From: a virus
Strand: one strand, 5' to 3'
Virus record (IMG/VR): IMGVR_UViG_3300025133_000033
DNA length: 64,000 bases
Shown: positions 13,935-52,367 of the stretch, piece after piece
How the letters are laid out: every line of letters starts with the position of its first letter
Numbering within the stretch: the first letter of the stretch is position 1
Notes under the pieces: generated by a model
Seen by the model: the letters and a program-made list of their open reading frames with translations, nothing else
Told to the model about the DNA's origin: nothing
Databases searched by the model: none
Made by a program: the position numbers and the translations under genes

Positions 13935-14830
13935 ATTTGCTCCAACATTTTTTCGACTCGATGAATATAACAGTGTCTATCTAAAACAACGGCCTGAGTT
14001 CTCTGTGCTTTTCCCTTACAATGCTCTGGACTAGCTAGTGAGTCACGAATTAAAGAAACCAAATGATCATAGTTATGAAACATAGTTAATTCTGTGGGAG
14101 AGAACTGCTTTGCTAGATCAGCAGAGTAGGGGTGTAATATATAGGCTCCATAACCACCAAGGATATAGACTCTGTTTGACCAGTAGCTATCACTGACAGG
14201 AGGCAAGGCCAACATTATCTGTGTATTTTCAATAGTATATTTAAGTTCGTGCTGGAATATAGTATACTGAAGATGAGCCATAGGCCCAAAGTCGCTGGAT
14301 AGCCTCATGATTATTTCTGCCCGCTCACGATAGCCATTGCCTGGAGTCTGCCCAATAAATAATAGCTTTCTCCAAGTAGTCTCTCCTCTATGAGCAGTAT
14401 ATTTGTCATGTATATGGTCTGTAGTAATTCCTATCATGCGGCTATCAAAGCCTTGTTTTAAGTCAATGACATTGGGTCTATTTTTAATTCTTACGTAATC
14501 ACCATCAGTATAGAATCCTCTATAGACATGCTCATCTATGGCCTCAATATATTTATCGTTCCACGGGAATCCTTTATAGAGAGGATCAAAGAACCAGACT
14601 ATACCTTTCCACTTATTGCAGACCCATCGAGCATAGTCTACGGGCAGCTTATGGAACAGGACAAAATCGAACTCTTCATTATCAAAGCTGTCTAACGTAG
14701 GCTGGTCCTGAGCAAGAGTGCGGAAGTCCATAGTATGAACCTCGTGACCAAGCTGTCTGAAGGACCATGTAATTGCTCCTTCGTCGTCATTATTTTGCTG
14801 GCCATGTCTGCCTAGATATAAGATTTTCAT
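13931..14830 (-). CDS. CgeB/Glyco_trans_1_2-type glycosyltransferase
   Basis: YWSNRVY..LG.G and HCYIHRV C-terminus. Confidence 0.8.
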   Translation of the reverse strand: MKILYLGRHGQQNNDDEGAITWSFRQLGHEVHTMDFRTLAQDQPTLDSFDNEEFDFVLFHKLPVDYARWVCNKWKGIVWFFDPLYKGFPWNDKYIEAIDEHVYRGFYTDGDYVRIKNRPNVIDLKQGFDSRMIGITTDHIHDKYTAHRGETTWRKLLFIGQTPGNGYRERAEIIMRLSSDFGPMAHLQYTIFQHELKYTIENTQIMLALPPVSDSYWSNRVYILGGYGAYILHPYSADLAKQFSPTELTMFHNYDHLVSLIRDSLASPEHCKGKAQRTQAVVLDRHCYIHRVEKMLEQI

Positions 14831-15387
14831 TGCTCTCTAACCTTAAATAAACCTATTTGCTTAACACGTTCTACTGGCTCTAACCAACCCATCACTACAT
14901 CATAGTAGGTGCGATGAGATAGGTGTGGATGGTATGCCTCTGGCCCAAAGTCATGGATTAGTACTCGGCTATTAGAGTCTCGCAATAAAGCCTTAGCTAA
15001 GGAAGCACATGCTACCCTCGCCCTTCCATCTATATACATTAGGTCGAAAGGTTTATTTAGAGACAAGAGAGGTGCGGTGACATAAGATGCGAAGTCCATA
15101 AAATCGCCGTCATCTCCTGCGGGAGTCTTTCTTCCCGATCCATCAAACTGATCTTCCCATAGCATATTGTCAGGGGGGACAAATAAATATTCTACATTGT
15201 CATTAAGCTTTGACTTTATCTTGTTGTACCACTTGGCAGTATGCTCTACAGAGGTTAGGTGCTCTGCCTTATTCTGTAATACTGTGGTTGAATGCCCTGA
15301 TCCATACTCAAGTATGCTTTTCGGATTATTCTTTTCTATCCAATCAAGTATAAACTTCTGTTCGTCTGGATCAGTCCAAAATTCCAT
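14827..15387 (-). CDS. SAM-dependent methyltransferase-like protein
   Basis: ILEYGSGHST, SVEH, FDLMYIDGRAR, IHD. Confidence 0.8.
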   Translation of the reverse strand: MEFWTDPDEQKFILDWIEKNNPKSILEYGSGHSTTVLQNKAEHLTSVEHTAKWYNKIKSKLNDNVEYLFVPPDNMLWEDQFDGSGRKTPAGDDGDFMDFASYVTAPLLSLNKPFDLMYIDGRARVACASLAKALLRDSNSRVLIHDFGPEAYHPHLSHRTYYDVVMGWLEPVERVKQIGLFKVREQ

Positions 15388-15445
15388 TATTATCTCCTGT
15401 TTCTGCTACGCATTTGTCCTAGTAAGGCTATTCTTCGTATGCCCT

Positions 15446-16315
15446 TCATTTTATAATATCTTTTAACTGCCCTGCAAAGGCTGGGCCACTAAAGTGGCTA
15501 CAGTAGGCTTGCTGGTCTAATAAATCCGTGTCTGGAGGATTCATCCATAATTGACTTATCTCATAGCAAAGATCGTCATAAGAATCAAATTGATACCTGT
15601 ATCCACGATCCTGAAAGATATCATTAGCTCCTTGAGTGACTGAATTGGGGAATAGTACAGGCTTTCCTAAATTATACGCTTCTAATAAAGACATTCCTCC
15701 AGTCGAAGCCTCGTTGTTTGTTGTTGCAATAAAGGAACAGCCAGAGAGAATGTCTTTGTATTGTTCAAAGGTCCACCTCTTATCTCTATTGCACATATAA
15801 GGGATATTTAGCTCCGTACACGCCCTAATCCCCCATTCTGCCGTCATATCCCAAGGATATTGTCTTTGAGCAAAACATACATAATGACGATTGCAAACAC
15901 TACGTCCTTCAAAGTATTGTGCAAAAGTCCTAACACAATGAACGTTGGTAAACCCAAAGCTTTCTAGGCATAGTTTACTACCAGCATTAGGACACATGAT
16001 AGTGATATAATCTTTGTATGGCTTTAATAATCTTGCTACTAGGCTGTCGTCCTGTTGTCTATTCTCAAAGTAAAAATCCCAAATAAAAATGAATGTTGGC
16101 TTAGGCCGTGTTTCTAGTAAATATACTAGCTGGTCTAGTTCTCCTTCGGTAAATAGAGACAGGTATATATCAGCATCCTCCTGCCGAGACAACTGTAAGT
16201 AAGAAGGCAGGGCTTGAAAGACGGGGGATAAAAAAGAGCTGGTATTAGTTACGTCTGCTCGTTTCTGGGGGCCTACCTGCGTTACTAAGTATACTTTTTT
16301 GCAATTCCCTGACAT
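15446..16315 (-). CDS. GT-B glycosyltransferase-like (paralog of 9089..9955)
   Basis: EASTGGMSLLEAYNLGKPV. Confidence 0.7.
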   Translation of the reverse strand: MSGNCKKVYLVTQVGPQKRADVTNTSSFLSPVFQALPSYLQLSRQEDADIYLSLFTEGELDQLVYLLETRPKPTFIFIWDFYFENRQQDDSLVARLLKPYKDYITIMCPNAGSKLCLESFGFTNVHCVRTFAQYFEGRSVCNRHYVCFAQRQYPWDMTAEWGIRACTELNIPYMCNRDKRWTFEQYKDILSGCSFIATTNNEASTGGMSLLEAYNLGKPVLFPNSVTQGANDIFQDRGYRYQFDSYDDLCYEISQLWMNPPDTDLLDQQAYCSHFSGPAFAGQLKDIIK

Positions 16316-16472
16316 ATGTTTCCTCTAGTCTTATCAATTCTTTTCTATACTCAAGCATCTCCTTCTCTTTATCTTCTATAAGCGAACGCATACCTAAAAT
16401 ATGCCTAAATGCCAAAGATTTAGATAGAGCTATTTTATTATTATCGGCGTCAAAACCAAACATATTATTTTT

Positions 16473-17468
16473 TTATCTTAGCACCTCATCATATCTTGGC
16501 TTTAGCTTATCCCCCTGGTTAGCCTTAGCCCACAGAGCACCCTCTTTCGACTGCTTGCTAATGTCCTGACCAGCCCATTTGTCTATCGTCTCAGCTATAG
16601 ATTGTGGTCGTATCATCGCGTTTTTAATCTCAACCCCTGTCCACGGCTGAACTGTTTTAAAATAGCCGCTTACGGGGATCAGGGGCTCTCGTGGAAGCCA
16701 TTCGTTGATGGGGAACCTATCTCCTGCCATCACACACATACCGGCAGCAGAAGCCTCCTGAAGAGGTAGTGATAGCCCGTTAAATTTCTCTGGAAATAGA
16801 AATACATCCCCAGTCTTCCATAGCTCTTGGAAGGGGATCTGCTCTTTGACTATCTCGACTCTATCATCTTTAATTTCATCAACAAGACTTAGCAGCTCAG
16901 GCTTAGCGTCTGGTTGTATTCGTATGATCAGTTTTATATCTGATTTAATCATTGGAAGAGCCTGCACTACCTCTACGGTCCCATTACGTGAGAAGATTCC
17001 CCCATGACCCACATTATGTACGAAGACGTTAGCCTTCTCACGAAGGTTCCACTCCACATCATTAGGTGCAGGCACAGGAATATAGCAGGCATTAAAGTCC
17101 TGGTAATACTCTAGATCGAGAGGAGAGGGACAAATGAACTCGTCCACAAGAGCCAAGGACTGCGTTGGAGTAGACTCATACATAGGCATAAGAACAACCT
17201 TCTTACTCTTGTATTTTGCACGCTGAACAAGAGACCAATCAAATGGATTGGGCATAGGTGCCTCTAATAACAGAAGAGTATCAATGGAGTCTAAGAACTC
17301 ATCTGCGGCAAGGATGATATCCTCAGTAGGATACCATTCTAAATGTGATTCAAATTTTGGATGCTGTACTACTAGAACCTTGTCTATTATCTTTGACTCA
17401 TAAAGAAGCTTCGCTAAGATACCTAGACCAGATTTAGTAGCATAGACTATAGAGCCTACAACTGACAT
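16473..17468 (-). CDS. GT4 glycosyltransferase
   Basis: DVFLFPEKFNGLSLPLQEA. Confidence 0.85.
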   Translation of the reverse strand: MSVVGSIVYATKSGLGILAKLLYESKIIDKVLVVQHPKFESHLEWYPTEDIILAADEFLDSIDTLLLLEAPMPNPFDWSLVQRAKYKSKKVVLMPMYESTPTQSLALVDEFICPSPLDLEYYQDFNACYIPVPAPNDVEWNLREKANVFVHNVGHGGIFSRNGTVEVVQALPMIKSDIKLIIRIQPDAKPELLSLVDEIKDDRVEIVKEQIPFQELWKTGDVFLFPEKFNGLSLPLQEASAAGMCVMAGDRFPINEWLPREPLIPVSGYFKTVQPWTGVEIKNAMIRPQSIAETIDKWAGQDISKQSKEGALWAKANQGDKLKPRYDEVLR

Positions 17469-18361
17469 TCCTTTTCCTCGCTAACATTTTTTTTCATAGC
17501 AACTACAGCACGCCCCACTAGATCTTCCCAATCCTTCTCGGGCCTGACCTTATTATTATACTCTCGGGCTGTTTCTAACAATGCTGCATCTACCCCGTTA
17601 TCTTTAAACAAGGTAATCATTCCGCTTAAGTCTTTTGGAAAACAGCTTCCCCCAAAGCCCAGCTTACCATCTGGTCCTGGCACCTCCCAATGAGTAGGTT
17701 CGATACGACGGTCTGCGATGACTGCCGACTTAATAAACTTAGAGTAGTCAACTCCTAGCTCCTGACAAAGCTGATACATATGATTAGCAAATGTTACCTT
17801 GACAGAGAAGTATGAATTCGTAATGTATTTAATAAGCTCCGCTTCTATAGGCGACACAAAGATACACTCTGCCTGCGTCCATAGATTTTTATGATAGTCC
17901 TTAAGCACTGTTCTAACTTGAGGATTGTTATGCGGATTAGCAATTCCTAGAACATGACGATCAGAGTTCTTAAAATCTTCGTAGGCATTACGCTCAGTCA
18001 AGAATTCTGGGTTCGTAACTAAAATCAGACTATTAAATAAAGACTGTAGCCTTTCGCTTGTCCCAGGCACCATAGTAGATTTGATTAGGACAAGAGGCAT
18101 CTTGTTGGCGGCAGAAGCACAGTTGTTGAGAAGCCTCAAGGCATCTGTCACAATATCTAGGTGGCATCTACCCTCCTTATCCATAGGGGTAGGCAGGCAG
18201 AGATAAATCATCTCACTGTTCCTAACTACATTATGATACCCTATATCAAAAGGAATATCGTCTTTGATATCATAAGTAGTAATAGAATGATCACACCACT
18301 CTTCAAGAAAGGTTCTGATTGCTGTCCCTACAAATCCTTGGCCTATAATTCCTATCTTCAT
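17456..18361 (-). CDS. ugd: UDP-glucose/GDP-mannose 6-dehydrogenase (short form)
   Basis: GQGFVG, CLPTP, KST, NPEFL, GFGGSCFPKD. Confidence 0.88.
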   Translation of the reverse strand: MKIGIIGQGFVGTAIRTFLEEWCDHSITTYDIKDDIPFDIGYHNVVRNSEMIYLCLPTPMDKEGRCHLDIVTDALRLLNNCASAANKMPLVLIKSTMVPGTSERLQSLFNSLILVTNPEFLTERNAYEDFKNSDRHVLGIANPHNNPQVRTVLKDYHKNLWTQAECIFVSPIEAELIKYITNSYFSVKVTFANHMYQLCQELGVDYSKFIKSAVIADRRIEPTHWEVPGPDGKLGFGGSCFPKDLSGMITLFKDNGVDAALLETAREYNNKVRPEKDWEDLVGRAVVAMKKNVSEEKECQL

Positions 18362-19215
18362 GCCTTTATCTCCACTAAATCCCAGAATTTATTTTTAGAC
18401 TCATCGCACCGCTTACGGAACTCTTGAAGCCCGTAACTATTATAGTCATGCACTGCCCCTATATTATCTCCAACCTCTAGGTCAATACCACAGAGGACAG
18501 CCTCTCCAACCGCACGACAGAACGCTTCAAAGCCAATGGGGTGATAGTATAAGGTCTTGTACTTGTTATATAATACAGGCATGTAGTCGTAGCTTACAGT
18601 ACCTAGAAATTCTACATTAGGAAATCTCCTAACAGTATTCTCCATGTTCGGGTCACCCCAAGCGGCAACAACAAATTGCTTATCAGGATTATGGAGGACA
18701 TGAGAGAAAAAGTTCTGAGTCCCTTTAAGAAAATGCATGAACCCAATATATAAGGTCTTGTCTTGTCTTTCTTCTGGACTCTTGGTTACCTTAAACTTTT
18801 TAGTATTAATAGGAGGAGTTATGATGCTGACATTATGAAAGATGGGTCCAAATCTTTCAACAAACATCCGGTGATGATAATCGGATAGAAAAAAAGACTG
18901 CTTAGCACTACCGTATAATAGCTTACGGTCTTCTACAGAGAGATATGAGCAAGAGTCATGCTCTAGTCGCACATGATTAGGGAACTGGCATATGAACTGA
19001 AACACCTCGGGACGACGTAATCTCAGGTGCTCTAGGTTGTTACTGACTAGTAGATCAAAGGTATTGGCCTGTATTAGTTCATCTCTATCATTTAGATTAA
19101 AGCAAGTGATCTCATGACCCCTCTTCCTTCCCTCTTTAATGATCTCGTCATCTGTCCTTTGCGACCCACCAGGATTATTATTGATGTTGAAGTCGCTTAT
19201 CCATAATACTTTCAT
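18358..19215 (-). CDS. GT4 glycosyltransferase
   Basis: KG...VEFLG...EAFCRAVGEAVLCG. Confidence 0.82.
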   Translation of the reverse strand: MKVLWISDFNINNNPGGSQRTDDEIIKEGRKRGHEITCFNLNDRDELIQANTFDLLVSNNLEHLRLRRPEVFQFICQFPNHVRLEHDSCSYLSVEDRKLLYGSAKQSFFLSDYHHRMFVERFGPIFHNVSIITPPINTKKFKVTKSPEERQDKTLYIGFMHFLKGTQNFFSHVLHNPDKQFVVAAWGDPNMENTVRRFPNVEFLGTVSYDYMPVLYNKYKTLYYHPIGFEAFCRAVGEAVLCGIDLEVGDNIGAVHDYNSYGLQEFRKRCDESKNKFWDLVEIKA

Positions 19216-22487: not shown

Positions 22488-23849
22488 TTAAAAGGGAACG
22501 GGGGGGCACCAATCTGTTCCCGTAAGTGCCCTTTTGATAACAACCTTGGCTGTTCTACAAGCCCCATTTTGCTGGTTTTGAGGACCATGAACCTGGATAA
22601 TGACACCTTTGTTATTCATTTCTATGGTAGCCTTATTTCCTGATTTCTCATAATGATAGATGAAGCTTTGGCCTTGAGCTGCTTTATATGCATAAGAGCC
22701 AACACAATGACTCATCTTTTTGCCTTCTCCACGAACTTCTCCCACAGTTTTCAAAAGGGTAAGTCCAGAGATATCTAGTTCTCCCCAAGGAGGATCAGGA
22801 AGAGCATAACTATCTTTATAACGAGACTCATACATAGTGGTCATGGGTCCATTCAATCTTACCTGGCCTTCATGCCACCTAAAACTTCGCATAAATAAAC
22901 CCTTCAGATCTCCATGATAAGTTTCAGGATAGTCATTCAAGTATCTTTTAAAGTCCTCTATCCTAGACATTCTGTTCATTTTATAATCCAGACCTCGATA
23001 ACGAGCCATACGTGCTACACGCAAAATGTCTTCATTTGTACTACGACGAAATACGGAAAGATGCCTATCAGAATGTATAAAGTCTCCGCGATCTGTAAGC
23101 ATGAATAAGATCTTTACCTTACCATACCAAGGCGTATCTAAGCGATGACGCCGTACATCCTCAACTATACCACCGTACATACATCTTGGAAAGCTCATTA
23201 GAGTTTTATTCAAAGACCTATAAGGCTTTCCTGTATCAGAATACATCTCCATCCAATTAACATCGTCTGGTACAACCTTACTATGCACGCGAAGACTTCT
23301 CAGTGCGTATGCTGCCGCAGGATACTTAAGAAGATCGCTAAGCCAATATTTCGATTGAAATGCCGATTCTAAAAAGGAACTAGAAAAGGCTCCAAGGGCA
23401 CCAGGACCAAAGGCGGAACAAAGAGCCCTAGAAAGAGTCCGGCGAGCGGGATCTTGGTATTTCTCCATCATTTCGTTCCAATGAGTAGCAAACCTCTTGC
23501 GGATATTATAAACCGCTTTACCATGCCACCACTTCTTTAGCTTGCGAGGCAAATCCTTTCCTGTATTCTTTTCTTTCCAAAAATCAGGCTGATAACTGGG
23601 CTGAGTAAAACGATTAGTATGATCATAGGGCCAATTAAGCAATATCTCCATACATTGTTTTTGTAGCTCGCGATACTGAGCCGCGAAAAAGAATTGCGAT
23701 ACCCCGTATGTACAGCCCTGCTCGTATTTTGCAACATCAACCATCACAACGCCAAAGTCGCGTGCTAGGATACTCACCTGACTGCCCGTTACTTTATTAG
23801 TAACGGTGAACCCGCCATCAGTTTTTTCAAAAAGAAATTTAAATAACAT
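22488..23849 (-). CDS. PcfJ-like domain protein
   Basis: C-terminal EGKKMSHCVGSY...ATIE...Q.HG..N. Confidence 0.75.
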   Translation of the reverse strand: MLFKFLFEKTDGGFTVTNKVTGSQVSILARDFGVVMVDVAKYEQGCTYGVSQFFFAAQYRELQKQCMEILLNWPYDHTNRFTQPSYQPDFWKEKNTGKDLPRKLKKWWHGKAVYNIRKRFATHWNEMMEKYQDPARRTLSRALCSAFGPGALGAFSSSFLESAFQSKYWLSDLLKYPAAAYALRSLRVHSKVVPDDVNWMEMYSDTGKPYRSLNKTLMSFPRCMYGGIVEDVRRHRLDTPWYGKVKILFMLTDRGDFIHSDRHLSVFRRSTNEDILRVARMARYRGLDYKMNRMSRIEDFKRYLNDYPETYHGDLKGLFMRSFRWHEGQVRLNGPMTTMYESRYKDSYALPDPPWGELDISGLTLLKTVGEVRGEGKKMSHCVGSYAYKAAQGQSFIYHYEKSGNKATIEMNNKGVIIQVHGPQNQQNGACRTAKVVIKRALTGTDWCPPVPF

Positions 23850-24021: not shown

Positions 24022-24393
24022 TCATTTTATTACGCCTGCTTTCTTATAAAAGGAACGACGGTAATTTTCGCTATATACGTTAAACTCTTTTTCTTTTTTA
24101 CATCTCGCCTTAGCTTTATGAATAAGACTGGTCCCAATCCCTCGTCTACGATATTTCGATTTTACATAGACCATAAGGTTGCAATCCCATACATGGGACT
24201 CTGTAATAATAGCCACTCCTATAGGAGTCTCCCCATCAAAAGCCATAGCCATAGAGTAGACTGGATAACCAGGAATTGCACATGCTACTTTGATCCCGCT
24301 AGAGCCCCACTGAAAGTGTAGTCGGTGGGCGATGACTAGACCTTTCCACTCTTTTATTTTTCGGCTACTTTTAGTTGTCTTATACTTTATCAA
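24022..24393 (-). CDS. GNAT acetyltransferase
   Basis: VYVKSKYRRRGIGTSL, FYKK. Confidence 0.85.
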   Translation of the reverse strand: MIKYKTTKSSRKIKEWKGLVIAHRLHFQWGSSGIKVACAIPGYPVYSMAMAFDGETPIGVAIITESHVWDCNLMVYVKSKYRRRGIGTSLIHKAKARCKKEKEFNVYSENYRRSFYKKAGVIK

Positions 24394-25331
24394 ATCAATT
24401 TCCTCCCACCTTTGGTCTTAATGATCTTATGATGTTGGATCAGCCACGGCTCAATTGTACTCTTCACTGTCTCTATGTCAACATTAATTCCAGAACAAAT
24501 TGAATCTACTCCAACCGGACCTCCTCCATTTTTCAACAAAAAATCAAGATAGAGACGGTCGTTCTCGGTCGATCCATCTAGGCCAATTCCACGAAGTGCC
24601 AATGCACGCTCTACGTGGCTCGCTGAGAGCCTTGAGACCCTTTTGGCGATACCGTAGTCGCGAATCCACTCCAGTAGCCCATTGGCGATCCTGGGGGTTC
24701 CTCGGCTGGATTTGGCAATTGTCGTCAAACCCTCCTGTCCGATGGGAACTTCTAGCTTTTTGGCGTTATTTATCAACAAAATAACCAATTCCTCTGGATC
24801 ATAGAGACGCAGAGGGAACTTCAGCTTGAATCGGTCGCGGAATGGAGCAGCAAGACTTCCCATTTCAGTCGTTGCACCCACTAAAGTGAATTCTGGCAGT
24901 TGCTCGCTGATTACTTCACCCACTTGTCCCTTTTTTCCTTCCACAGAGATATCTAAGCGGAAATCTTCCATTACAGGATACAGGAACTCTTCAACTAGAT
25001 TGGTGATTCGGTGAATTTCATCAATAAAAAGAATCGAGCGTCGATAGCGAGCAGGATTAGCCACCATCTTCCATAGGAGAGGTAGCAGCTTACTTACAGT
25101 TCGGAGATTTGCCCCATTAGCCACCTGAATGTCAACATTTAGCTCATTGGCCAGTGCATTAGCCAGAGTGGTCTTGCCAAGTCCTGGTGGACCGTGGAAT
25201 AAGCAGTGATTGAGAGCAGCATCTCGCTGATTAGACGATACTACAGCGATCTTTAGCGACTCAAGAAGTTCTTCCTGGCCAACTAGGTCATTAAACCGTT
25301 CGGGTCGTAGTATATTCATCGGAACTTTCAT
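24390..25331 (-). CDS. ruvB: Holliday junction branch migration helicase RuvB
   Basis: LRP..F...GQ, GPPGLGKTTLA, FIDEIHR, LYPVMED, GATT, RDRF, RGTPRIAN. Confidence 0.95.
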   Translation of the reverse strand: MKVPMNILRPERFNDLVGQEELLESLKIAVVSSNQRDAALNHCLFHGPPGLGKTTLANALANELNVDIQVANGANLRTVSKLLPLLWKMVANPARYRRSILFIDEIHRITNLVEEFLYPVMEDFRLDISVEGKKGQVGEVISEQLPEFTLVGATTEMGSLAAPFRDRFKLKFPLRLYDPEELVILLINNAKKLEVPIGQEGLTTIAKSSRGTPRIANGLLEWIRDYGIAKRVSRLSASHVERALALRGIGLDGSTENDRLYLDFLLKNGGGPVGVDSICSGINVDIETVKSTIEPWLIQHHKIIKTKGGRKLI

Positions 25332-29128: not shown

Positions 29129-29356
29129 TCAACCCGTACTGGGAAAAATTTTTACGTATTCTTCATTTACTTCGTCTGAGTCAATTTTTTGGGTATCGGG
29201 ATGCACACCAAAACCCTGCTCTGATACCCAGTAGTGCCCGCCAACCATAATCGTTGAAAAACGAAATAGATGTAAAGCTTTAGCACAGGCAACAACTGGA
29301 TTATCAGCCTCTACGATAGTAGTCTCTTTACCGTCTCGGATATAATACTTAGGCAT
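29129..29356 (-). CDS. hypothetical protein (MPKYYI...)
   Basis: Likely start at the MPKYY Met overlapping the end of the sigma gene. Confidence 0.55.
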   Translation of the reverse strand: MPKYYIRDGKETTIVEADNPVVACAKALHLFRFSTIMVGGHYWVSEQGFGVHPDTQKIDSDEVNEEYVKIFPSTG

Positions 29357-30158
29357 GAGACAATTCCTTCCTTGCCTGAGCCGCTTCCTTAACAGCCTTC
29401 TTAGTTTTACGAATAGTCTTTCCAACTTCCTGAACAGAACTATCTAAGTCCTCAGCAGTTAATCGGGTCTTGTTATTCTTATGGATATAACGCAACCAGT
29501 GGAAGAAGGTCTCCTTCTCGCTTTCGTCCTCAACTGTTTCTTCTACTAACTCAATCAACTCTGCTAAGCAACCATCTATATTAGTTCTGGTATCAGACTC
29601 CAACGCCTCCTGGTTATGAAGCCTCATATTCAGTACTGTATAGTCGATTCTCTTTGAAGACATGATACGCATCAATAGCTTGATACGCTTTACAGTCAAC
29701 CCTGTACTCTTGCGGATAGTCTCAATATCCTCACTGCCAGAGTCTCTGATTTTCTTCATGTCGTCGCAGGACTGACGACTCATTTCAAACTTATTTTTAA
29801 TTGAATACTTACTTTCTTTGATCATATCAATCAAAGAGTTACGAACATACCAAGTCGCTACTGTACTCAACTTTGCTCGACTAATATCCCATCCATCAAC
29901 TGCACGAATCAAAGCAATGTTTCCATGCTGAATCATATCTTCCAGGTCGATGTGTCGGTTATTCTTTCGAAACTTTTGAGCAAGGTCGTAAACCAGCGGC
30001 AAGCAGCTCGCAATCAATTGATCTCGGGCTACTTGATCTCCTTCCTTCATCTTGTCATACAATATGCGGTGGTCTGAACTTTTCACTTGGCTATATGCGG
30101 TGGTAAGGTCGATTTTGTATTGATCTGTCATGACGATCTCCTTTAGTTTTGTGAGCAA
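29349..30158 (-). CDS. sigma70-family RNA polymerase sigma factor
   Basis: ARDQLI..CLPLV, DLEDMIQHGNIALIRAVDGWD, STVATWYVR (region 2). Confidence 0.85.
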   Translation of the reverse strand: MLTKLKEIVMTDQYKIDLTTAYSQVKSSDHRILYDKMKEGDQVARDQLIASCLPLVYDLAQKFRKNNRHIDLEDMIQHGNIALIRAVDGWDISRAKLSTVATWYVRNSLIDMIKESKYSIKNKFEMSRQSCDDMKKIRDSGSEDIETIRKSTGLTVKRIKLLMRIMSSKRIDYTVLNMRLHNQEALESDTRTNIDGCLAELIELVEETVEDESEKETFFHWLRYIHKNNKTRLTAEDLDSSVQEVGKTIRKTKKAVKEAAQARKELSHA

Positions 30159-31037: not shown

Positions 31038-31061
31038 AGCTTTTCTCTATTAAAAGTAAAG

Positions 31062-31143
31062 TGTGCCGAGAGGGATTCGAACCCCCAACGTTTCTTTGTA
31101 ACTGATTTACAGTCAGCGTGCTTCACCATTTGCATATCGACAC
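31062..31143 (-). tRNA. tRNA-Tyr(GTA)
   Basis: GCTGA-CTGTAAA-TCAGT, long variable arm. Confidence 0.88.
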
Positions 31144-31151
31144 ATACTAAG

Positions 31152-31223
31152 TAGGACTGGAAGGAATTGAACCTTCAAGGCCAGCCTTATAAGAGCTAGT
31201 GGAGTACCATCTCGCTCAGTCCC
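31152..31223 (-). tRNA. tRNA-Ile(TAT)
   Basis: TAGCT-CTTATAA-GGCTG; A discriminator. Confidence 0.75.
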
Positions 31224-31228
31224 ATAAG

Positions 31229-31300
31229 CTGACCCCCTGCGATTTGAACGCAGAATACGAGGACCAAAACCTCGTGTGTTACCTGTTACACCAAGGGCCA
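31229..31300 (-). tRNA. tRNA-Gln(TTG)
   Basis: CGAGG-TTTTGGT-CCTCG; U1:A72. Confidence 0.9.
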
Positions 31301-31313
31301 ATAAAAAGCCTAG

Positions 31314-31386
31314 TATCGCGGACGGGAATTGAACCCGCATAGCCCAGCTTGAAAGGCTGAGTGCCTAACCAATACAGCACCGCGAC
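31314..31386 (-). tRNA. tRNA-Glu(TTC)
   Basis: TCAGC-CTTTCAA-GCTGG. Confidence 0.88.
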
Positions 31387-31394
31387 ATATATAA

Positions 31395-31510
31395 GTCTAC
31401 CCTGCGGGAATCGAACCCGCTTGCGTTTCACACTCTTACGCCTTATGTTTCGAACCACTCAACTTATCGAGCCTAGCTAGTTACGCACGCCACCACGGTT
31501 CAAGAGCAGA
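31395..31510 (-). ncRNA. tRNA-like RNA with 8-bp acceptor, T arm and ~55-nt insert in place of the anticodon loop
   Basis: TCTGCTCT/AGGGTAGA, GCGGG-TTCGATT-CCCGC, TGCGT/ACGCA stem. Confidence 0.55.
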
Positions 31511-31527
31511 TAAAAAGTGACTCGTAA

Positions 31528-31803
31528 AAGAATCAGTGGGAGAAGCAAGAGGGGCTTTGTACCCTCTCCGGTCTACCAATGATACTTCCTCATTCAAGTT
31601 CTTCTCATTCTAATACTAACGATCCTTGTCTCGCCAGCATTGATCGTATCAATCCTAATAAAGGGTATATAACTGATAACATTCAATGGGTTTGCTTAAT
31701 AGGTCAGTATTGTAAAAATATATACTCTATGGAAGATGTAATTAAATTTTGCAATGCTGTAAGCAAAGGGGCTGGAGGAGGATTTGAACCTCCAAACACT
31801 TGA
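31528..31803 (+). pseudogene. HNH-type endonuclease fragment
   Basis: WEKQEGLCTLSGLPM...SIDRINPNKGY..DNIQWVC; in-frame stop upstream; antisense to the tRNA cluster. Confidence 0.7.
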
Positions 31804-31842
31804 TTTAATACAAGCCGCTTTGATCTATTAGCGTACCCAGCC
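31769..31842 (-). tRNA. tRNA with atypical 8-nt anticodon loop (TATTAAAT), identity undetermined
   Basis: Intact acceptor, D and T arms. Confidence 0.6.
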
Positions 31843-31852
31843 AAAATAAAAG

Positions 31853-31920
31853 CAGCGAGCGATGGACTTGAACCACCATATCCTGTGCCCAGGCAGCATT
31901 AGACTTATGCCGAACTCGCT
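31853..31920 (-). ncRNA. tRNA body with anticodon loop reduced to 4 nt (CCTG-GGCA-CAGG)
   Basis: AGCGAGT/GCTCGCT, GGCAT/ATGCT, GGTGG-TTCAAGT-CCATC. Confidence 0.6.
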
Positions 31921-31983
31921 GTAAATTAAGATAAGTGTTTATGGGTTTTCCACTATAGTTGACCCTTTATTTTTTTTTCTGAG

Positions 31984-32058
31984 TGGTACGAGGAGGATTT
32001 GAACCCCCGACAACCGAACGCTTCAAGATCGTGCTCTACCAAGCTGAGCTATCGTACC
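31984..32058 (-). tRNA. tRNA-Phe(GAA)
   Basis: Canonical D arm AGCTCAG..GGTAGAGC; loop TTGAAGC; one stem mismatch. Confidence 0.75.
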
Positions 32059-32299: not shown

Positions 32300-33139
32300 T
32301 TAAGTAGCGTGGATTTCATCGCAGTCATAAATTCTATACTCACATACCCCAATACCTGAAGGATTAGGGGAATCGTCGTCCCACCTATTGTTTGTGATTT
32401 GTAAGTTTTTCTCGTGACTGACCTTCTTGTCTTTTTCTTTATAATGCTCAGTTCTTAAGCTTTCGTGATGATTCATTTGAAGAATAAGGGGATGCCCTTG
32501 GGTTTCCTGGAACGTATATAGTTGATTCAATCTATCATACATATCGTTGTCTTCCCAGCCCCACCCCTCCATTAGCTCGTCGTACCCTCTTACCGCTAAA
32601 AAGGCAGTCATAGTCATACTCATAGTGCCTTTGCCCGGAATCGGAACTCTTAGCACCGGAGCCCGCAGAGCACGGCGACTCTTAGCATCCCACAATCGGG
32701 TTCTTCGTTGTGCCGCACCCCCAGGTCCATATTCGGAGCGATACCAAGCCCCTGGTTCAGTTAAATGTGCTCCGCCTCGCAATATAGGAAGAGAGGCATT
32801 GATTAACCAAAGAGGCTCAACTAATACATCAGAATCTAAAAAGTTAATGATATTAGCATCTGCCAACATAGCCCCACAATTCCTTGCCCTAGACAAGTTA
32901 AAGTAATCGGTTTTATCCTCTACTTTTATTACTCGTAAATTGGGCAGGGGATTGCGATGGAAATATTCAAATGTACCGTCAGGACAGCCATAGTCTACAA
33001 GCACCACTCTATAGGTAAACGTATCCCTGGTATCTTGGCTGCACATCTTAGGCAGCGTATCTTTAAGGAAGTCCAGCCTACCTTTACACGTAACAACAAT
33101 AGCTACGTCTTTAGTAGTCTCGGGCGTATCTGACCCCAT
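32300..33139 (-). CDS. GT2/GT7C-type glycosyltransferase, copy 1
   Basis: VLVDYG, FNLSRARN.G, DSD, GYDE.MEGWGWEDND. Confidence 0.9.
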   Translation of the reverse strand: MGSDTPETTKDVAIVVTCKGRLDFLKDTLPKMCSQDTRDTFTYRVVLVDYGCPDGTFEYFHRNPLPNLRVIKVEDKTDYFNLSRARNCGAMLADANIINFLDSDVLVEPLWLINASLPILRGGAHLTEPGAWYRSEYGPGGAAQRRTRLWDAKSRRALRAPVLRVPIPGKGTMSMTMTAFLAVRGYDELMEGWGWEDNDMYDRLNQLYTFQETQGHPLILQMNHHESLRTEHYKEKDKKVSHEKNLQITNNRWDDDSPNPSGIGVCEYRIYDCDEIHAT

Positions 33140-33240
33140 TAAGCCACCTCCAATTCAGGTTGAGCCTCGAATAGCTTGGTAAAGGTATCCTTTTTCAATT
33201 TATCCAGCCACCTACCTCCGCAATCTTGACAGTAAAACAT
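33139..33240 (-). CDS. 33-aa chimeric mini-ORF (MFYCQDCGGRW + C-terminal tail of the TerD-like gene)
   Basis: GGAGG RBS, ATG at 33240, TAATG overlap with the GT start. Confidence 0.5.
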   Translation of the reverse strand: MFYCQDCGGRWLDKLKKDTFTKLFEAQPELEVA

Positions 33241-33381
33241 TACCTACCTCCAATGAATAAAGTATCCCAATCCGCTCCGACCTCGTTGCCTTATACTTTC
33301 CCGATTAAAAATCTTCCAGTATAAAGCTGGGGCAATCACCCCCCTTCCATCATCTAGCTCAGGAGCTAGACTAGCTACTAA

Positions 33382-34227
33382 TTAAGTAGCGTGGATTTCA
33401 TCGCAGTCATAAATTCTATACTCACATACCCCAATACCTGAAGGATTAGGAAATCCTCTTCTATTGTTTGCGATTTGCATATTTATCTCATGACTGCGAT
33501 GCCTATTCTTTTCTTTATAATGTTCAGTCCTTAACTCTTCATGATGATTCATTGACGAAATCAAGGGATGCCCCTCGATTTGATGGATAATATACAACTG
33601 ATTCAATCTCACGTACATATCGTTGTCTTCCCATCCCCATCCCTCCATTAGCTCGTCATACCCTCTTACCGCTAAAAAGGCAGTCATGGTCATAGCCATA
33701 GCACATTTACCCGACATTAAAACATCTTTGATATGATTAATGGCAGATATATCTGTAGCTCTCTCTCCCTCGCTATAAATAGCTTCTCCTGCCGCATACA
33801 TAGTGCCTCCAAGACCATACTTAGAGCAATACCAGTCTACAGGATTAACTACGTGTGCTCTATCGTATCGTATAGGCTTAGTAATATTATACAGCCAAAG
33901 AGGTTCTACTAATGTATCGGCATCTGAAAAGTTAATGATATTAGCATCTGCCAACATAACCCCACAATTCCTTGCCCTAGACAAGTTAAAGTAATCGGTT
34001 TTATCCTCTACTTTTATTACTCGTAAATTGGGCAAGGGATTGCGATGGAAATATTCAAATGTACCGTCAGGACAACCATAATCTACAAGCACCACTCTAT
34101 AGGTAAATGTATCCCTAGTGTCTTGGCTGCACATTTTCGGCAGCGTATCTTTAAGGTAGTCCAGTCTACCTTTACACGTAACAACAATAGCTACATCTTT
34201 AGTAGGCTCGGGCGTATTTGACTCCAT
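33382..34227 (-). CDS. GT2/GT7C-type glycosyltransferase, copy 2
   Basis: Near-identical N- and C-termini to 32300..33139. Confidence 0.9.
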   Translation of the reverse strand: MESNTPEPTKDVAIVVTCKGRLDYLKDTLPKMCSQDTRDTFTYRVVLVDYGCPDGTFEYFHRNPLPNLRVIKVEDKTDYFNLSRARNCGVMLADANIINFSDADTLVEPLWLYNITKPIRYDRAHVVNPVDWYCSKYGLGGTMYAAGEAIYSEGERATDISAINHIKDVLMSGKCAMAMTMTAFLAVRGYDELMEGWGWEDNDMYVRLNQLYIIHQIEGHPLISSMNHHEELRTEHYKEKNRHRSHEINMQIANNRRGFPNPSGIGVCEYRIYDCDEIHAT

Positions 34228-36011
34228 TAAGCTACCGCCAATTCAGGTTGAGCCTCAAATAGCTTGGTAAAGGTATCCTTTTCCAATTTATCCAGAGACA
34301 GATCAACATCTGCTTCATCAGCTTCGTCAACAAACTGAACACCCAGATCCAACAGTAGCTCGTTAAAGCTAAGAGGATTAGACCATTGCTGGTATAGTGC
34401 ATTGATAGCTTGCTGTGGGTTACGACCAGACACTCTCGCGTGACCTGCACCAAAATTCAATAGCACAAAGGCATGTTGCTTTACACCTCCAAGCTTAGGA
34501 GGCAGTAACATTCCAACTACAGTTTGTTTTTGTACAGAATTACACTTAACTTCCATAAACAGGTTGTTAGGGTTCATCATGTACTTCATATTAATACGAT
34601 CTCCACGACCGACAATGATCTTGTAGCCCGCATCAGGATTACCGCTATACACGTTATTCATGATCAGGTATGCCTGAGACAAACCCTCCGATGAATATAG
34701 GTATTCTACCGCACCATCTGGAGCATTAGTAATATCTCCAGAATACGCTAGAACATCATCGCTATAGCTAGAGTTCCATCCAATCTTACCTCCCTGAACA
34801 TCCAATGCCGACAGGTCATGATCGTTAGCACCCCAATCATTACGCCAGTATACTCCGCAGGCCAATCTCTCACCATAGAACTTAGTTCCAGTTGGGACAT
34901 TTCCCACGAACATCTTTTCAGATGTAGGTATAGCATACTCTACGTCACGAGGCAATAAGACCTTAGTACCAGTCAAATCGAATCTCAGCTTAAGGTAATC
35001 GTACAGAATACCAAAGTTAGTCACAGGAATAACAACCGAACTAGTTGCTTTGTCTGCAATCCAACTCTTACCATTTCTAATTCTGTAAACAAAATCAGTC
35101 TGGCGACCCATACGATTATAGCACGCAGTAAGTGCCTTGAACAACGCAAACGGAGTCGCATTGTCCAACCAGTGTCTATCTGCATCTGTCAGCTTACGCT
35201 GAGTTACCAAGTTCAGAGGGTTAGTCACAAGAGGCTTATGGTTGCTCTTGGACAGCTTACTGATCTTGTTAATTACTTTAGGACATTGACCCTTGAACGC
35301 TAGGAATAAAGGCTTAAATCTATTGAAGATTTCCGCCAGCTTACCAAGACCAAAGCTTTTTAGTTGAGCCGCAGGATTAAAGTTAGTATCTTTAATCTTA
35401 GCGATCATCTCTGGACTCTTAATCAGCAGGGACTCTCCAGTCGCTCTGAAGAGAATGTAACGAAAAAACTCCATTGTATCTGTAGGTAAGATACCATACA
35501 TATCGGCAATCTTAATGATAGCCTCCTTGTTCTTGATACCTTCCTTGCCAGTAAACGAGTAGTCTAGCTCGTCAACAAGCACCGACAGTACGTCGTTAAT
35601 TGTTTCTTCTGTTAAAGCAATACCGCTTTGCAACATACCAAGACACTTCTTAGTCATCGCAGTCTTGCAGTACGATTTAATAACCGTATACTTTAACTCC
35701 AGACCAGGAACCTCAAGTTCCTCGTCAGGGATGTATATTTCTCCCTTAAGGTCAGTACCATAGGTAGACAGATAGTGTCTGATCTGCTCGACCAACAACT
35801 CGTAACGAGACGAGCTGATCACCTTCTCCCATGACTTATGGAAGGTTTTGTTCAGATCATTACCGCTCAGCTTTTGCTCAGCATAAAATGCTACAATATT
35901 ATCCTTAGCCCACATAGCATCAGACTGGATAACATACCCTTCGTCAGATACGAATACTTCTGCCTTAGATGGCTTAGCAATAACAGCATTAAACAACTTC
36001 AGTGTCTTCAT
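34227..36011 (-). CDS. large protein with helical N-terminus and C-terminal TerD-like domain
   Basis: GVYW...DHDLSA...GWN...YSGDITNAPDGAVEYL; start MKTLKLF with GAGGA RBS. Confidence 0.7.
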   Translation of the reverse strand: MKTLKLFNAVIAKPSKAEVFVSDEGYVIQSDAMWAKDNIVAFYAEQKLSGNDLNKTFHKSWEKVISSSRYELLVEQIRHYLSTYGTDLKGEIYIPDEELEVPGLELKYTVIKSYCKTAMTKKCLGMLQSGIALTEETINDVLSVLVDELDYSFTGKEGIKNKEAIIKIADMYGILPTDTMEFFRYILFRATGESLLIKSPEMIAKIKDTNFNPAAQLKSFGLGKLAEIFNRFKPLFLAFKGQCPKVINKISKLSKSNHKPLVTNPLNLVTQRKLTDADRHWLDNATPFALFKALTACYNRMGRQTDFVYRIRNGKSWIADKATSSVVIPVTNFGILYDYLKLRFDLTGTKVLLPRDVEYAIPTSEKMFVGNVPTGTKFYGERLACGVYWRNDWGANDHDLSALDVQGGKIGWNSSYSDDVLAYSGDITNAPDGAVEYLYSSEGLSQAYLIMNNVYSGNPDAGYKIIVGRGDRINMKYMMNPNNLFMEVKCNSVQKQTVVGMLLPPKLGGVKQHAFVLLNFGAGHARVSGRNPQQAINALYQQWSNPLSFNELLLDLGVQFVDEADEADVDLSLDKLEKDTFTKLFEAQPELAVA

Positions 36012-36032
36012 GATCCTGGTCCTCGATAAAAA

Positions 36033-36420
36033 AGGTGGAGAGTAAAGTTTGGCAGGCCCGTTCCCCGAGGGGTGGGCCAATCAGTGAAAATAGGAACTCT
36101 CGTTACCCGTTCGTTTCCTTGTTTTATTAAAGTGATGGAGAGTAAATTAAGGCGGGGTTACCGCCAGTTTTCATAGATAGGAACTCTCTTTACCACTCCT
36201 TCAATTGTACTATTTGTTTCGTATAAAGCAACCCCTAAAAATAAAAAGATGGAGAGTAAAATCTGACATATATATAGGAACTCTCTTTATCTTTTGTTGT
36301 TTTAGAAAGGCGGGAAGTAAGGATTCGCCATTGAAAAGAATAGGAACTTCCGGTGCCCATTGGTTAAAAAGGCGGGGGATAAGGTACTTACAATAGTTAT
36401 ATATAGGAATCCCCGTTGCC
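36033..36420 (-). repeat. array of five structured repeats (stem-TTCCTAT-variable-TTA-stem)
   Basis: Units 36033-36108, 36131-36197, 36244-36295, 36308-36358, 36371-36420 with compensatory stem changes. Confidence 0.9.
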
Positions 36421-36591
36421 GTTATACTCTACGACTCGTTGGTTGGTTGTGATTCTCTTAACTCTTCCAACCATTGCATAAGCTTTTCTACCTTTTCTTC
36501 TGTAGTCTCTTCTTTTTTAGTTGACATTAGCCTTCACTTTTGCCTCCACCTTGATTTCAGTGATGCATGTAAAACTTATCCAAAAAATGAG

Positions 36592-36666
36592 CGACCCCAA
36601 CCGGAATCGAACCGGCAACCTCTAGATCGACAGTCTAGTGCTCTAACCTGATTGAGCTATGAGGCC
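36592..36666 (-). tRNA. tRNA-Asp(GTC)
   Basis: CTAGA-CTGTCGA-TCTAG. Confidence 0.92.
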
Positions 36667-36822
36667 AAATTATTAGTGGAAGTAAAAATCGCTTACAACT
36701 TCTTCTTCTACATACTTCTTTATATATATACGCTAGGATGAACCAACTTGTTAGGTATCTCATACATAAGACAAAAAGCCCTATGCCTAGCGTAAGTCTC
36801 AAAATATAACTCCAATATTTCT

Positions 36823-37095
36823 TTAGTCAACATAAGGCTCTGCCACTGTAATACACTTTGATGTATCTTCGTAACTTGAACCAGCAGTCATCGCACCAGG
36901 ACTCTCAACGCCACTATAGTAGTAACTTTGATTGATGCTACTAATACCCTGTGACACATTCTCAAACTCATTAATGACAGCAGTACGAACACTGTTCAAA
37001 CCAGTCACCAAACCTGCGACTAGAATACCACTCACCATAATATATTCAGCGGATATGATGCCGCCAATTTCATCAGCCCATAGTTTTCTCAACAT
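36823..37095 (-). CDS. Flp/type IVb pilin-like protein
   Basis: LWADE.GG|IISAEY (E+5, Y+6) followed by a hydrophobic helix and INQSY. Confidence 0.8.
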   Translation of the reverse strand: MLRKLWADEIGGIISAEYIMVSGILVAGLVTGLNSVRTAVINEFENVSQGISSINQSYYYSGVESPGAMTAGSSYEDTSKCITVAEPYVD

Positions 37096-37134
37096 AATTG
37101 ATCTCCTATTTTCATAAAATTTACCCTTTATAAG

Positions 37135-37208
37135 TCTGGATGAAAGGAGTTGAACCTTCGACCCCTTGGTCCCAAACCAAGTGCTCTACCAAGCTGAGCT
37201 ACATCCAG
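37135..37208 (-). tRNA. tRNA-Pro(TGG)
   Basis: CTTGG-TTTGGGA-CCAAG. Confidence 0.93.
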
Positions 37209-37213
37209 TCAAG

Positions 37214-37287
37214 CATGTGCGGCAGGAATCGAACCTGCAACCGGCAGTTTTGGAGACTACTGCTCTCCCTAATTGAGCTACGCACAT
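37214..37287 (-). tRNA. tRNA-Trp(CCA)
   Basis: GTAGT-CTCCAAA-ACTGC. Confidence 0.92.
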
Positions 37288-37359
37288 ATACAACAGCTTA
37301 TTCTACACCAACTGTACCATCCGATGTACCGTTTGTCAGCATTTAAATTCCAAAAAAAG

Positions 37360-37431
37360 TAGGGACAGAAGGATTCGAACCCTCAATGTCTGGTTAGAAG
37401 CCAGAAGTGATTTCCATTTCACCATGTCCCC
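37360..37431 (-). tRNA. tRNA-Arg(TCT)
   Basis: TCTGG-CTTCTAA-CCAGA. Confidence 0.9.
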
Positions 37432-37510
37432 TCAGTATGTCCTTAATTATACACCATGTTTTCCAAAAAGAGATAGAAAAGAATAGGGGCCGAAACCCCC
37501 ATCCTAGTGG

Positions 37511-47120: not shown

Positions 47121-48074
47121 TTAGGTAGCCAGGGCAACGGCCTGAGTTAGGGCGTCACGGTTCTGGTTTCCGTTTTGACCGAACCAGAGCGAATCCATTC
47201 GGTTGGCCTCATTTCGGCCCTTCTCGTAGTTCAGGTACTCGCTGACGGAGTTGTAAGCTCCCCACCAAGTGCCCGCTACGCCTTCCAGATCGGCACCGCG
47301 ACCCGTCTCAAAAAGTTCCTCCACACGCGACACGATATTCCGCGAGCGGGTTGCAATGTCCTCATCCTTTTTGATGGCTTCCTTTGCACCCAACATTACG
47401 ATTTTCACGTACTTGTGAAGATCGGCGGAGTTGATCGCACGCGATGCCAGAAAACGATACTGGTCGCACGTCGATTCAAATTCCTGATTTGCGAGGTTCA
47501 TAATGTCCCGCAACTTTTCCACGTTCTCCTTGACGAAACGGTGATGGCGAACGCGGATCAGCTTCGACGCTTCGCAATCACGAGCGAGAGCCTCAGTGTT
47601 CGAACACACCACCCGAATGGGGGTGAACCCGAAGTGAACCGCCAGCTTTCCATCGTGCCCGTTCGAGAGCAGAGCGAACTTGCGAATCTCATCACCCTTG
47701 ACGATTTCGCTGTTTTCTAAAGCCAACTGACAAAGAACCCAAACCCGTTGACCGTCGCGAAGGGAACCAGCCGTGTGCCAATTCATGTCGCCTGACTCAA
47801 CCAGAGGCTCGAACACCTTAAAAGAGTCTGCATTTTGCAGAGGAGTCCAACGAGGACCAACGACACCCAAAACGGAATCATCCGATTCGCGTACAGACGC
47901 TTGAGCCTTGACTTCCTCGCCATTAGCTCGAAAGAGGGGTTCGGTCTTGACTGACCAATCCAAACCCGCCTTGATCATCACATCCTCAGTGGTTTCAGTA
48001 CCATCGAGGGGGTTGCCCAAACCATGCCAGGGAACCTCACCAAAAAACGCCATCTGCTCAACTGCTGCGGTCAT
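47121..48074 (-). CDS. DUF932 family (phage/plasmid-like TIGR03299) protein
   Basis: PWHGLG, AGLDW.V, LQN, TAGSL..G..VW, NGHDG, TPIRVVCSNT, GTWWGAYN. Confidence 0.9.
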   Translation of the reverse strand: MTAAVEQMAFFGEVPWHGLGNPLDGTETTEDVMIKAGLDWSVKTEPLFRANGEEVKAQASVRESDDSVLGVVGPRWTPLQNADSFKVFEPLVESGDMNWHTAGSLRDGQRVWVLCQLALENSEIVKGDEIRKFALLSNGHDGKLAVHFGFTPIRVVCSNTEALARDCEASKLIRVRHHRFVKENVEKLRDIMNLANQEFESTCDQYRFLASRAINSADLHKYVKIVMLGAKEAIKKDEDIATRSRNIVSRVEELFETGRGADLEGVAGTWWGAYNSVSEYLNYEKGRNEANRMDSLWFGQNGNQNRDALTQAVALAT

Positions 48075-51753: not shown

Positions 51754-51764
51754 AACACTTTTAG

Positions 51765-51838
51765 CGACCCTAACCGGAATCGAACCGGCAACCCCTAGAT
51801 AGACAATCTAGTGCTCTGCCTGATTGAGCTATAAGGTC
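51765..51838 (-). tRNA. tRNA-Asp(GTC), second copy
   Basis: CTAGA-TTGTCTA-TCTAG; homologous to 36592..36666. Confidence 0.9.
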
Positions 51839-52295
51839 AAATCATACTATCATTATACCATCGGGCGTGGTAAAGTCAACCCCATAGCAGAAAAAACAAT
51901 AAGAAATCCGATAATAAGTAGAGTTTCCATTCTGGTCTCCTTCCCTACTACTATTATCGGCATTTGTCAACCCCAATCTTTAATACTTCATAAAAGAAAA
52001 AAAAGATGTAAGTCCTTTGGTAGCAAGGGGTTACGTCCACTCCTCCCGGCGGCTCGCCCTAAGTCCTTACGTGGCAAGGACTTACGACGAAACCTTAGTA
52101 ATTTATGTAGGAAAAAAATCGGCGGAACTCACCCTTTACTCTAGTGGAACCTTTACGTGCAAGCCGCACACCGGCAAGTCTTTTTTCATTCTATCGACTG
52201 TCGAAAAAAGCTCTAGCTGTCAAAAAAGTATGGCTACGGTCCTGTGAGTTTTGTCGGGACTACTCGATACAGAGACTTTACCCGTCACTAGTGAG

Positions 52296-52367
52296 TATTG
52301 CACCGGGGTAACGCTCCCCGCTCTCCAGCTTGAAGGGCTGGCGACATCGCTCCTAGTCCAGTGCAAC
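52296..52367 (-). tRNA. tRNA-Glu(TTC)-like with atypical T loop
   Basis: GTTGCAC/GTGCAAT, CCAGC-CCTTCAA-GCTGG, CGGGG-AGCGTTA-CCCCG. Confidence 0.65.

Follow-up and report, generated by a model that had tools for sequence, protein, structure and literature searches.

A candidate family of handle-and-cargo small RNAs linked to an uncharacterised protein family in phages and bacteria

Ro60 (Rsr), a protein with TROVE and vWA domains, and its Y RNAs (YrlA, YrlB and Yrn1) are known from the Salmonella rsr-yrlBA-rtcBA operon and from the Ro60 loci of mycobacteriophages (Chen et al., 2014, PMC4201824; Rfam RF02553). The motif to which Ro60 binds is GNCGAAN0-1G in bacteria and GGUCCGA in vertebrates (PMC4201824). 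Here we describe a locus of comparable layout in a window of 64,000 nucleotides (nt) from an uncultured phage of about 176 kb (IMG/VR record IMGVR_UViG_3300025133_000033; positions are those of this window, unless a locus number is given). Five RNA hairpins precede, on the − strand, the gene for a protein of 594 amino acids (aa), termed P0001. As with Ro60 and Y RNAs, several small structured RNAs are encoded close to the protein gene (about 2 kb at most) and in its orientation, and each consists of a bulged stem, which binds the protein in Y RNA and putatively does so here, and of a variable module. Computation establishes how these RNAs fold and covary, on which strand they lie, that they are linked exclusively to the gene, that their cargo is modular, and what surrounds them in the genomes; the window offers a clean example with five units of simple cargo. 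We think that the units probably are members of a hitherto undescribed family of small RNAs, composed of a constant handle and a variable cargo, and that the handle is bound by the adjacent protein, so that the pair would be an analogue of Ro60 and Y RNA without homology to them. A literature search that included PMC7824862 did not find a description of the module; a prior mention in Burroughs and Aravind (2016) is possible.

The five hairpins occupy positions 36032 to 36422 of the − strand, are built to one shared plan, and end 20 nt ahead of the 594-aa gene. From 5′ to 3′, each unit comprises an outer stem of 3 to 7 base pairs (bp), a 3-nt bulge, a 5-bp stem, TTCCTAT, the variable cargo, TTA, the 3′ strand of the 5-bp stem, a single C, and the 3′ strand of the outer stem. 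In this order, unit 1 (36369–36422) reads ACGGC/AAC/GGGGA/TTCCTAT/20-nt cargo loop/TTA/TCCCC/C/GCC, and unit 2 (36307–36359), the bulge of which is atypical, reads GGGC/ACC/GGAAG/TTCCTAT/19-nt cargo loop/TTA/CTTCC/C/GCC. The outer stem of unit 3 (36246–36293; AAGAT/AAA/GAGAG/TTCCTAT/14-nt cargo loop/TTA/CTCTC/C/ATCTT) extends to 7 bp. Unit 4 (36132–36196; GTGGT/AAA/GAGAG/TTCCTAT/31-nt cargo/TTA/CTCTC/C/ATCAC) holds a GGCGG/CCGCC hairpin in its cargo, and unit 5 (36032–36109; GGGT/AAC/GAGAG/TTCCTAT/cargo of about 45 nt/TTA/CTCTC/C/ACC) an extended GC-rich hairpin. This plan had been proposed by an earlier sequence-only reading of the window, and all five units were recovered in the sequence as described. 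When folded singly, each formed the handle, with z-scores from −1.8 to −3.7 (−2.3, −1.8, −2.2, −3.7 and −2.0 for units 1 to 5); none of 200 shuffles of unit 4 was as stable. RNAfold extended the inner stem by a sixth pair, in which the U that opens UUCCUAU faces the A that closes UUA. As a word, TTCCTAT is not enriched in the window (14 copies versus 13.4 expected), and its only copies with handle structure are the five within 36090–36409. The covariance model R1, made from phage units, matched nothing in the 64-kb window except the five units (52.3 bits with E 3e-12 for unit 1, and 42.5, 51.6, 29.7 and 26.9 bits for units 2 to 5). The handle is composed of an outer helix, an A-N-A bulge facing a single C, and an inner helix of 5 bp (6 bp with the invariant U-A), followed by UCCUAU on the 5′ side and U on the 3′ side.

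No existing Rfam family explains this motif: the units were without a match in a scan of positions 35500–37500 at E ≤ 10, and ARAGORN and the Rfam tRNA model made zero tRNA calls in 36032–36422. Upstream of the gene in five bacterial loci, Rfam 15 (E ≤ 0.01) yielded nothing beyond tRNA and weak YrlA rows on tRNA-like elements.

Relatives of the protein with 33–63% identity are encoded in 28 IMG/VR loci that we collected, and most of these loci have the handle motif upstream of the gene. In an alignment of 25 units with short cargo, 97% of the cells were paired, all 10 of the 10 pairs showed double-sided changes, and the covariation score was 0.94, versus 0.37 for shuffles and 0.14–0.21 for slid registers. 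These units had been chosen for pairing, and therefore less biased counts were added. In one of these, candidates were picked solely by the word TTCCTA[TA]. In the bacterial loci, the handle formed at 193 of the 255 such words upstream of the gene, versus 2 of 361 elsewhere; the corresponding values for the phage loci were 32 of 44 and 2 of 50. When G-U and A-C were tolerated equally, 114 G-U versus 7 A-C were counted in 187 distinct units. The bulge is A-N-A (AAA, ACA, AUA or AGA) in 181 of these units, and the base facing it is C in 185. Taken together, the covariation, the enrichment of handles at upstream TTCCTA[TA] words, and the large excess of G-U over A-C indicate that the structure is an RNA on the strand of the gene, in agreement with the compensatory stems and the G-U preference for the − strand that the sequence-only reading had reported. 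Thus, the units are a genuine, covarying and strand-specific RNA structure.

The handle is linked to one gene family over large evolutionary distances. Across 266 kb, comprising the window and the phage loci, R1 had 74 matches, 72 of which adjoin the gene on its own strand, and in most phage loci one to five units adjoin the homologous gene. The matches reach homologues of only 33–35% identity in the Synechococcus phages S-CRM01 and S-CBWM1, and also the gut phage Phass-1. In S-CRM01, four units lie upstream of g174 and one directly after it (L029 4826–4877). S-CBWM1 has one unit ahead of gp22 and another among tRNAs 2.5 kb upstream (L030 446–500). In Phass-1, the units are 1.2–11 kb away from the gene: a group of five follows it at a distance of about 1.2 kb, and another three lie at about 10 kb. 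A unit just downstream of the gene is also present in L024 (3897–3937). Position 6 of the box varies in S-CRM01, the partner protein of which is 34.7% identical; in this case, handle and protein diverge together. Two annotated hypothetical coding sequences, S-CRM01 g173c (L029 2788–2934, antisense) and Phass-1 WIC39680.1 (L031 6085–6384), overlie handle units and probably are spurious open reading frame (ORF) calls over non-coding RNA genes.

In a scan of species-representative genomes, the protein was found in 206 bacterial species, mostly Flavobacteriia, Chitinophagia and Cytophagia, and 80 loci (989 kb in total) were kept, the counts of which do not represent independent events because the sample is mostly Chryseobacterium. 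R1 had 218 matches in these loci, all 218 of them on the gene strand and at most about 400 nt upstream, and on three whole bacterial genomes (3.4–4.6 Mb) it matched at the module locus only. The search with a covariance model upstream of homologues, which the sequence-only reading had suggested, thus placed units beside the gene in nearly all phage loci and upstream of it in the bacterial set. Altogether, the RNA is encoded near the gene and on its strand in the window and about 100 other loci, and the last unit ends 12–28 nt ahead of the ATG in nearly every homologous locus. From Bacteroidota to cyanophages, the units are evolutionarily tied to the adjacent protein.

The handle is constant and the cargo is not. 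The units of the window carry only simple loops or GC-rich hairpins, and tRNA-like modules occur only in relatives (L010, L029, L038 and L084). In the tRNA-like RNAs of the loci L038 and L084 and of the phage locus L010, the acceptor, D and T arms are intact, and a permuted handle (in the order NUA, 3′ stem, C, outer hairpin, ANA, 5′ stem, UUCCUAU) takes the place of the anticodon arm. By contrast, a unit of S-CRM01 has a handle of normal order around a T arm, a stem-loop and a D arm, that is, the permuted tRNA mimicry and topology of YrlA (described in PMC4201824). Cargo hairpins resembling a T arm were seen in L029, L084 and L113. A search of the window for chimeras of a permuted handle and tRNA found none, its single match being a coincidence between units 4 and 5. 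Cargo differs even between relatives with 70% identity. Weak YrlA, tRNA and tmRNA-like Rfam rows follow the partner gene in the bacterial loci L043 (7837–8028) and L084 (12600–12956); these elements may be further tRNA-like RNAs of the module.

P0001 is encoded at 34227–36011 of the − strand. Its ATG, at 36011, lies exactly 20 nt past unit 5, close to the spacing given by the sequence-only reading, and agrees with the N-termini of homologues. The protein belongs to a large, uncharacterised family with more than 2000 homologues by a word-sharing search and 1545 clusters at 50% identity. Its N-terminal domain (residues 1–352; 34956–36011) is helical and is the putative RNA-binding part, as judged from conserved motifs rich in K, R, N and H, which are compatible with RNA binding but are no proof of it. 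Refolded with 83 diverse sequences, this domain reached a predicted local distance difference test (pLDDT) value of 91.1. It had no match in the PDB: the best Foldseek E-value was 0.11, and the best Z-score in the structure search with VIA was 5.2, over a helical hairpin of about 70 residues. The structure predictions, which the sequence-only reading had proposed in view of an RNA-binding ring or a TROVE-like fold, gave no such match.

The C-terminal domain (residues 379–543; 34383–34877) is a beta-sandwich, modeled with a pLDDT of about 80–90. In a VIA search against 48,161 chains, two TerD chains ranked on top, 2qz7_B (Z 8.5, root-mean-square deviation 3.6, 134 residues aligned) and 2kxt (Z 7.7, 141 residues aligned), and the next, unrelated row had a Z of 5.7. 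The description of the protein as TerD-like therefore holds, with moderate confidence, for the fold only. At the sequence level, Pfam TerD (PF02342) did not match P0001 at E ≤ 1 or any of 73 diverse members at E ≤ 0.01, and sequence profile searches of the PDB were empty for TerD and gave nothing relevant for P0001. Unlike in TerD, the domain is fused to a helical domain of 350 aa, and neither other ter genes nor anti-phage genes lie nearby, so that a ter-operon or anti-phage context is not supported. The residues G386, W389, D397, D399, G425, D426, A434 and E436 are invariant in the C-terminal domain. We take D397, D399, G425, D426 and E436 to be reminiscent of the Ca-binding motifs of TerD. 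To our knowledge, no RNA partner is known for TerD, whereas here the putative partner is an RNA. Neither Pfam and PHROG scans of P0001 nor a Pfam scan of the 73 relatives revealed a meaningful family, and a search of the ESM Atlas returned viral hypothetical clusters only.

In the window, the module is part of a co-oriented series of tRNA genes: tRNA-Asp(GUC) (36591–36666) lies upstream of the units, as a probable co-transcript, and genes for tRNA-Pro, tRNA-Trp and tRNA-Arg lie beyond it. In the two closest relatives (L112 and L113, 70% identity), the first unit starts 2–4 nt past the 3′ end of a tRNA, which points to co-transcription and to maturation together with tRNAs. Small stable RNAs other than tRNAs are also embedded in the tRNA gene cluster of phage T4, namely the species 1 and 2 RNAs (rnaC and rnaD), which are presumably matured with the tRNAs; we know of no dedicated protein partner for them. 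Arrays of tRNA genes surround the gene in the window, in S-CRM01, in S-CBWM1 and in most of the IMG/VR phage loci. Of the 80 bacterial loci, 57 encode RtcB in the same orientation and at most 6 kb away, versus none of the 33 phage loci. Example bacterial loci also hold a divergent WYL-WCX regulator, a PrfH-like RF-1 protein and an RNase T-like exonuclease. With tblastn, neither RtcB nor the RNase T-like exonuclease of L084 was found in the window.

The tRNA mimicry of the module in relatives, the RtcB link in bacteria and the occurrence in phages are further likenesses to Ro60 and Y RNA. The differences concern both partners. P0001 and the 73 members have no TROVE or vWA domain by Pfam, Ro60 is absent from the lists of the fold searches with the whole model and the N-terminal domain (by itself a weak argument), and the C-terminal domain of P0001 is TerD-like. 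The units hold no GNCGAAN0-1G; unit 2 has GGCGAAUC, in which the final G fails. The YrlA model misses the units, and its sole row, at 32 bits versus a gathering score of 69, overlaps the genes for tRNA-Pro and tRNA-Trp. Unlike YrlA, the bacterial tRNA-like members keep the normal tRNA topology, with the handle replacing the anticodon arm. Relative to vertebrate Y RNA, the single-nt and the 3-nt bulge presumably lie on opposite strands. Since P0001 and the units both lack defining features of Ro60 and Y RNA, we regard the module as an analogue and not as a member; the comparison made in the sequence-only reading stands in this sense, through the tRNA-like cargo and the RtcB operons of relatives, and found no support with respect to the fold.

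Concerning processing, direct binding and biological function of the handle RNAs, we infer the following course. A − strand transcript would join the upstream tRNA-Asp, the units and the downstream gene, and the units probably would be freed by the tRNA/RNA processing machinery. The occurrence of units beyond the leader, within tRNA-like RNAs and directly next to tRNAs makes it most likely that they are free small RNAs and not mere operators. The 594-aa protein would bind the handle and form a ribonucleoprotein; given that the handle is inherited together with one protein family across distant phages and bacteria, this is the simplest reading. The contexts of tRNA arrays and RtcB, together with cargo made of tRNA parts, point to the quality control, repair or protection of RNA and tRNA, and the particle probably surveys, repairs or protects tRNA and other RNA. 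The last unit, 20 nt before the ATG, may double as a translational operator by which the protein represses its own translation, an added autoregulatory role that is suggested by the constant spacing between the last unit and the start codon. More tentatively, and with somewhat less than even chances, the module could be a new class of ribonucleoprotein that displays interchangeable cargo, from tRNA arms to whole tRNA bodies. Placed in phage tRNA arrays, it would then sense, decoy or repair the damage done by host tRNA nucleases, and bacteria would couple it to ligation by RtcB, a convergent use of the Ro60/Y RNA principle with a new fold and a new RNA motif.

Several observations weigh against the interpretation as protein-bound small RNAs. 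The protein is without a recognisable RNA-binding domain, the window has neither tRNA-like cargo nor RtcB, and the phage loci L009 and L013 encode the protein and have zero units within 3 kb, even with filters off. In addition, the units behind the covariation statistics had been pre-selected for pairing, Chryseobacterium dominates the bacterial sample, and the near-constant spacing between the last unit and the start codon would also suit a role in cis. The latter point, together with the position of most units upstream and on the gene strand, would also be expected if the hairpins were a purely cis-acting leader, which remains in the 5′ untranslated region of the mRNA as a set of operators for the protein or another factor and releases no free small RNAs. 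We consider this unlikely, because units are also found downstream of the gene, among tRNAs 2.5 kb off, and up to about 11 kb away in Phass-1, because handles form part of tRNA-like RNAs whose acceptor, D and T arms are intact, and because arrays abut the 3′ ends of tRNAs; moreover, an operator would not need five copies with varied cargo. The autoregulatory leader, which the sequence-only reading had offered as a simpler alternative, may therefore apply to the last unit, but not to those that are downstream, kilobases distant or embedded in tRNA-like RNAs. Still less probable is that the units are processing or stability elements of a polycistron of tRNAs and mRNA, that is, entry sites for RNases or protective structures that serve host enzymes and have no specific tie to the protein. 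The head-to-tail arrangement with tRNAs, the A/U-rich linkers and the runs of U after several units would fit such a function. Yet, the motif is confined to the neighborhood of the gene in whole genomes that contain many other tRNA operons, it is kept in bacterial RtcB operons that lack tRNA arrays, and the invariance of UUCCUAU, UA and C implies that a dedicated reader is inherited together with the protein.

Two further explanations are much less probable. Constant boxes around variable segments have the layout of a guide-RNA array, as in CRISPR arrays, where constant and variable segments also alternate, and the sequence-only reading had proposed that the loops serve as guides, which would steer the protein to complementary nucleic acids. 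This is very improbable, since within the window the best antisense matches of the cargo loops were 8–10 nt long, i.e., at the level of chance (null mean about 10 nt, null maximum 13–15 nt), and since the cargo often folds on itself or is a part of a tRNA and is not conserved among the 70%-identical relatives. Furthermore, Pfam revealed no nuclease or Cas-like domains in P0001 and the 73 members, the neighbors are without Cas-like domains, and the ‘constant’ stems covary between units, unlike the near-identical repeats of CRISPR arrays. The idea of guides is thus not borne out. Finally, clustered intergenic inverted repeats could be elements of DNA rather than RNA, for example, repetitive extragenic palindromic (REP) sequences, miniature inverted-repeat transposable elements (MITEs), or palindromes that bind a protein. 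We give this next to no credence: the ratio of G-U to A-C is strand-specific, compensatory changes preserve the pairing while the sequence drifts, the orientation to the gene is fixed in every one of the bacterial matches, and R1 detected no copies elsewhere in whole genomes.

If the pairing of handle RNA and protein is physical, the module would be a widespread and unrecognised RNA-protein particle. Its protein family comprises about 1500 clusters at 50% identity and is spread over more than 200 bacterial species and many large phages, its RNA family is absent from Rfam, and its N-terminal protein fold is without a match in the PDB. The particle would then represent a second, independent solution to the Ro60/Y RNA design and would bear on the need for scaffold RNAs in RNA-repair operons and phage tRNA arrays and on the purpose of tRNA mimicry. 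The module is testable in cultured systems, for which the phages S-CRM01 and S-CBWM1 as well as isolates of Chryseobacterium or Flavobacterium are available, and the handle could serve as a portable tag for protein recruitment.

Several features surround the module. Between tRNA-Asp and unit 1, there is an ORF of 32 codons (36429–36527, − strand) that is preceded by GGTGGAGG, a strong Shine-Dalgarno-like sequence, and ends 7 nt before unit 1. Its status is uncertain; it has no Pfam match and no counterpart at the equivalent position in L112 or L113. At the other end, the stop codon of the P0001 gene shares 1 nt with the ATG of the gene that follows (TAATG), which suggests a single operon with the two GT2 glycosyltransferase genes downstream (32300–34227, − strand), a neighbor that is not conserved in the other loci. 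In one phage locus, a tmRNA-like gene (L015 4732–4986; ARAGORN, tag AKSFAVAA) directly follows the partner gene.

The window contains 17 tRNA genes, in several clusters (442–2022, 31061–32058, 36591–37431, 45797 and 51764–52367), all but one of which are on the − strand; Asp(GUC) and Glu(UUC) are duplicated, and there are two Ile species. In a megablast search against isolate phages, tRNA fragments of the window were matched and nothing else. A sugar-modification block (7360–19215, − strand) includes a DegT/EryC1 aminotransferase, a C-methyltransferase and glycosyltransferases. Elsewhere, the window encodes a PcfJ-like protein (22488–23849), a RuvB-like ATPase (24390–25331), a sigma-70 region-2 protein (29349–30158) and a DUF932 protein (47121–48074). 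Beside the tRNA cluster for Ile, Ala, Lys, Ser and Thr (442–2022), a stand-alone RF-1-domain protein of 122 aa is encoded at 50–418 of the − strand (PF00472, E 1.6e-24). It is ArfB/PrfH-like and possibly acts as a ribosome-rescue or peptidyl-tRNA hydrolase factor of the phage.

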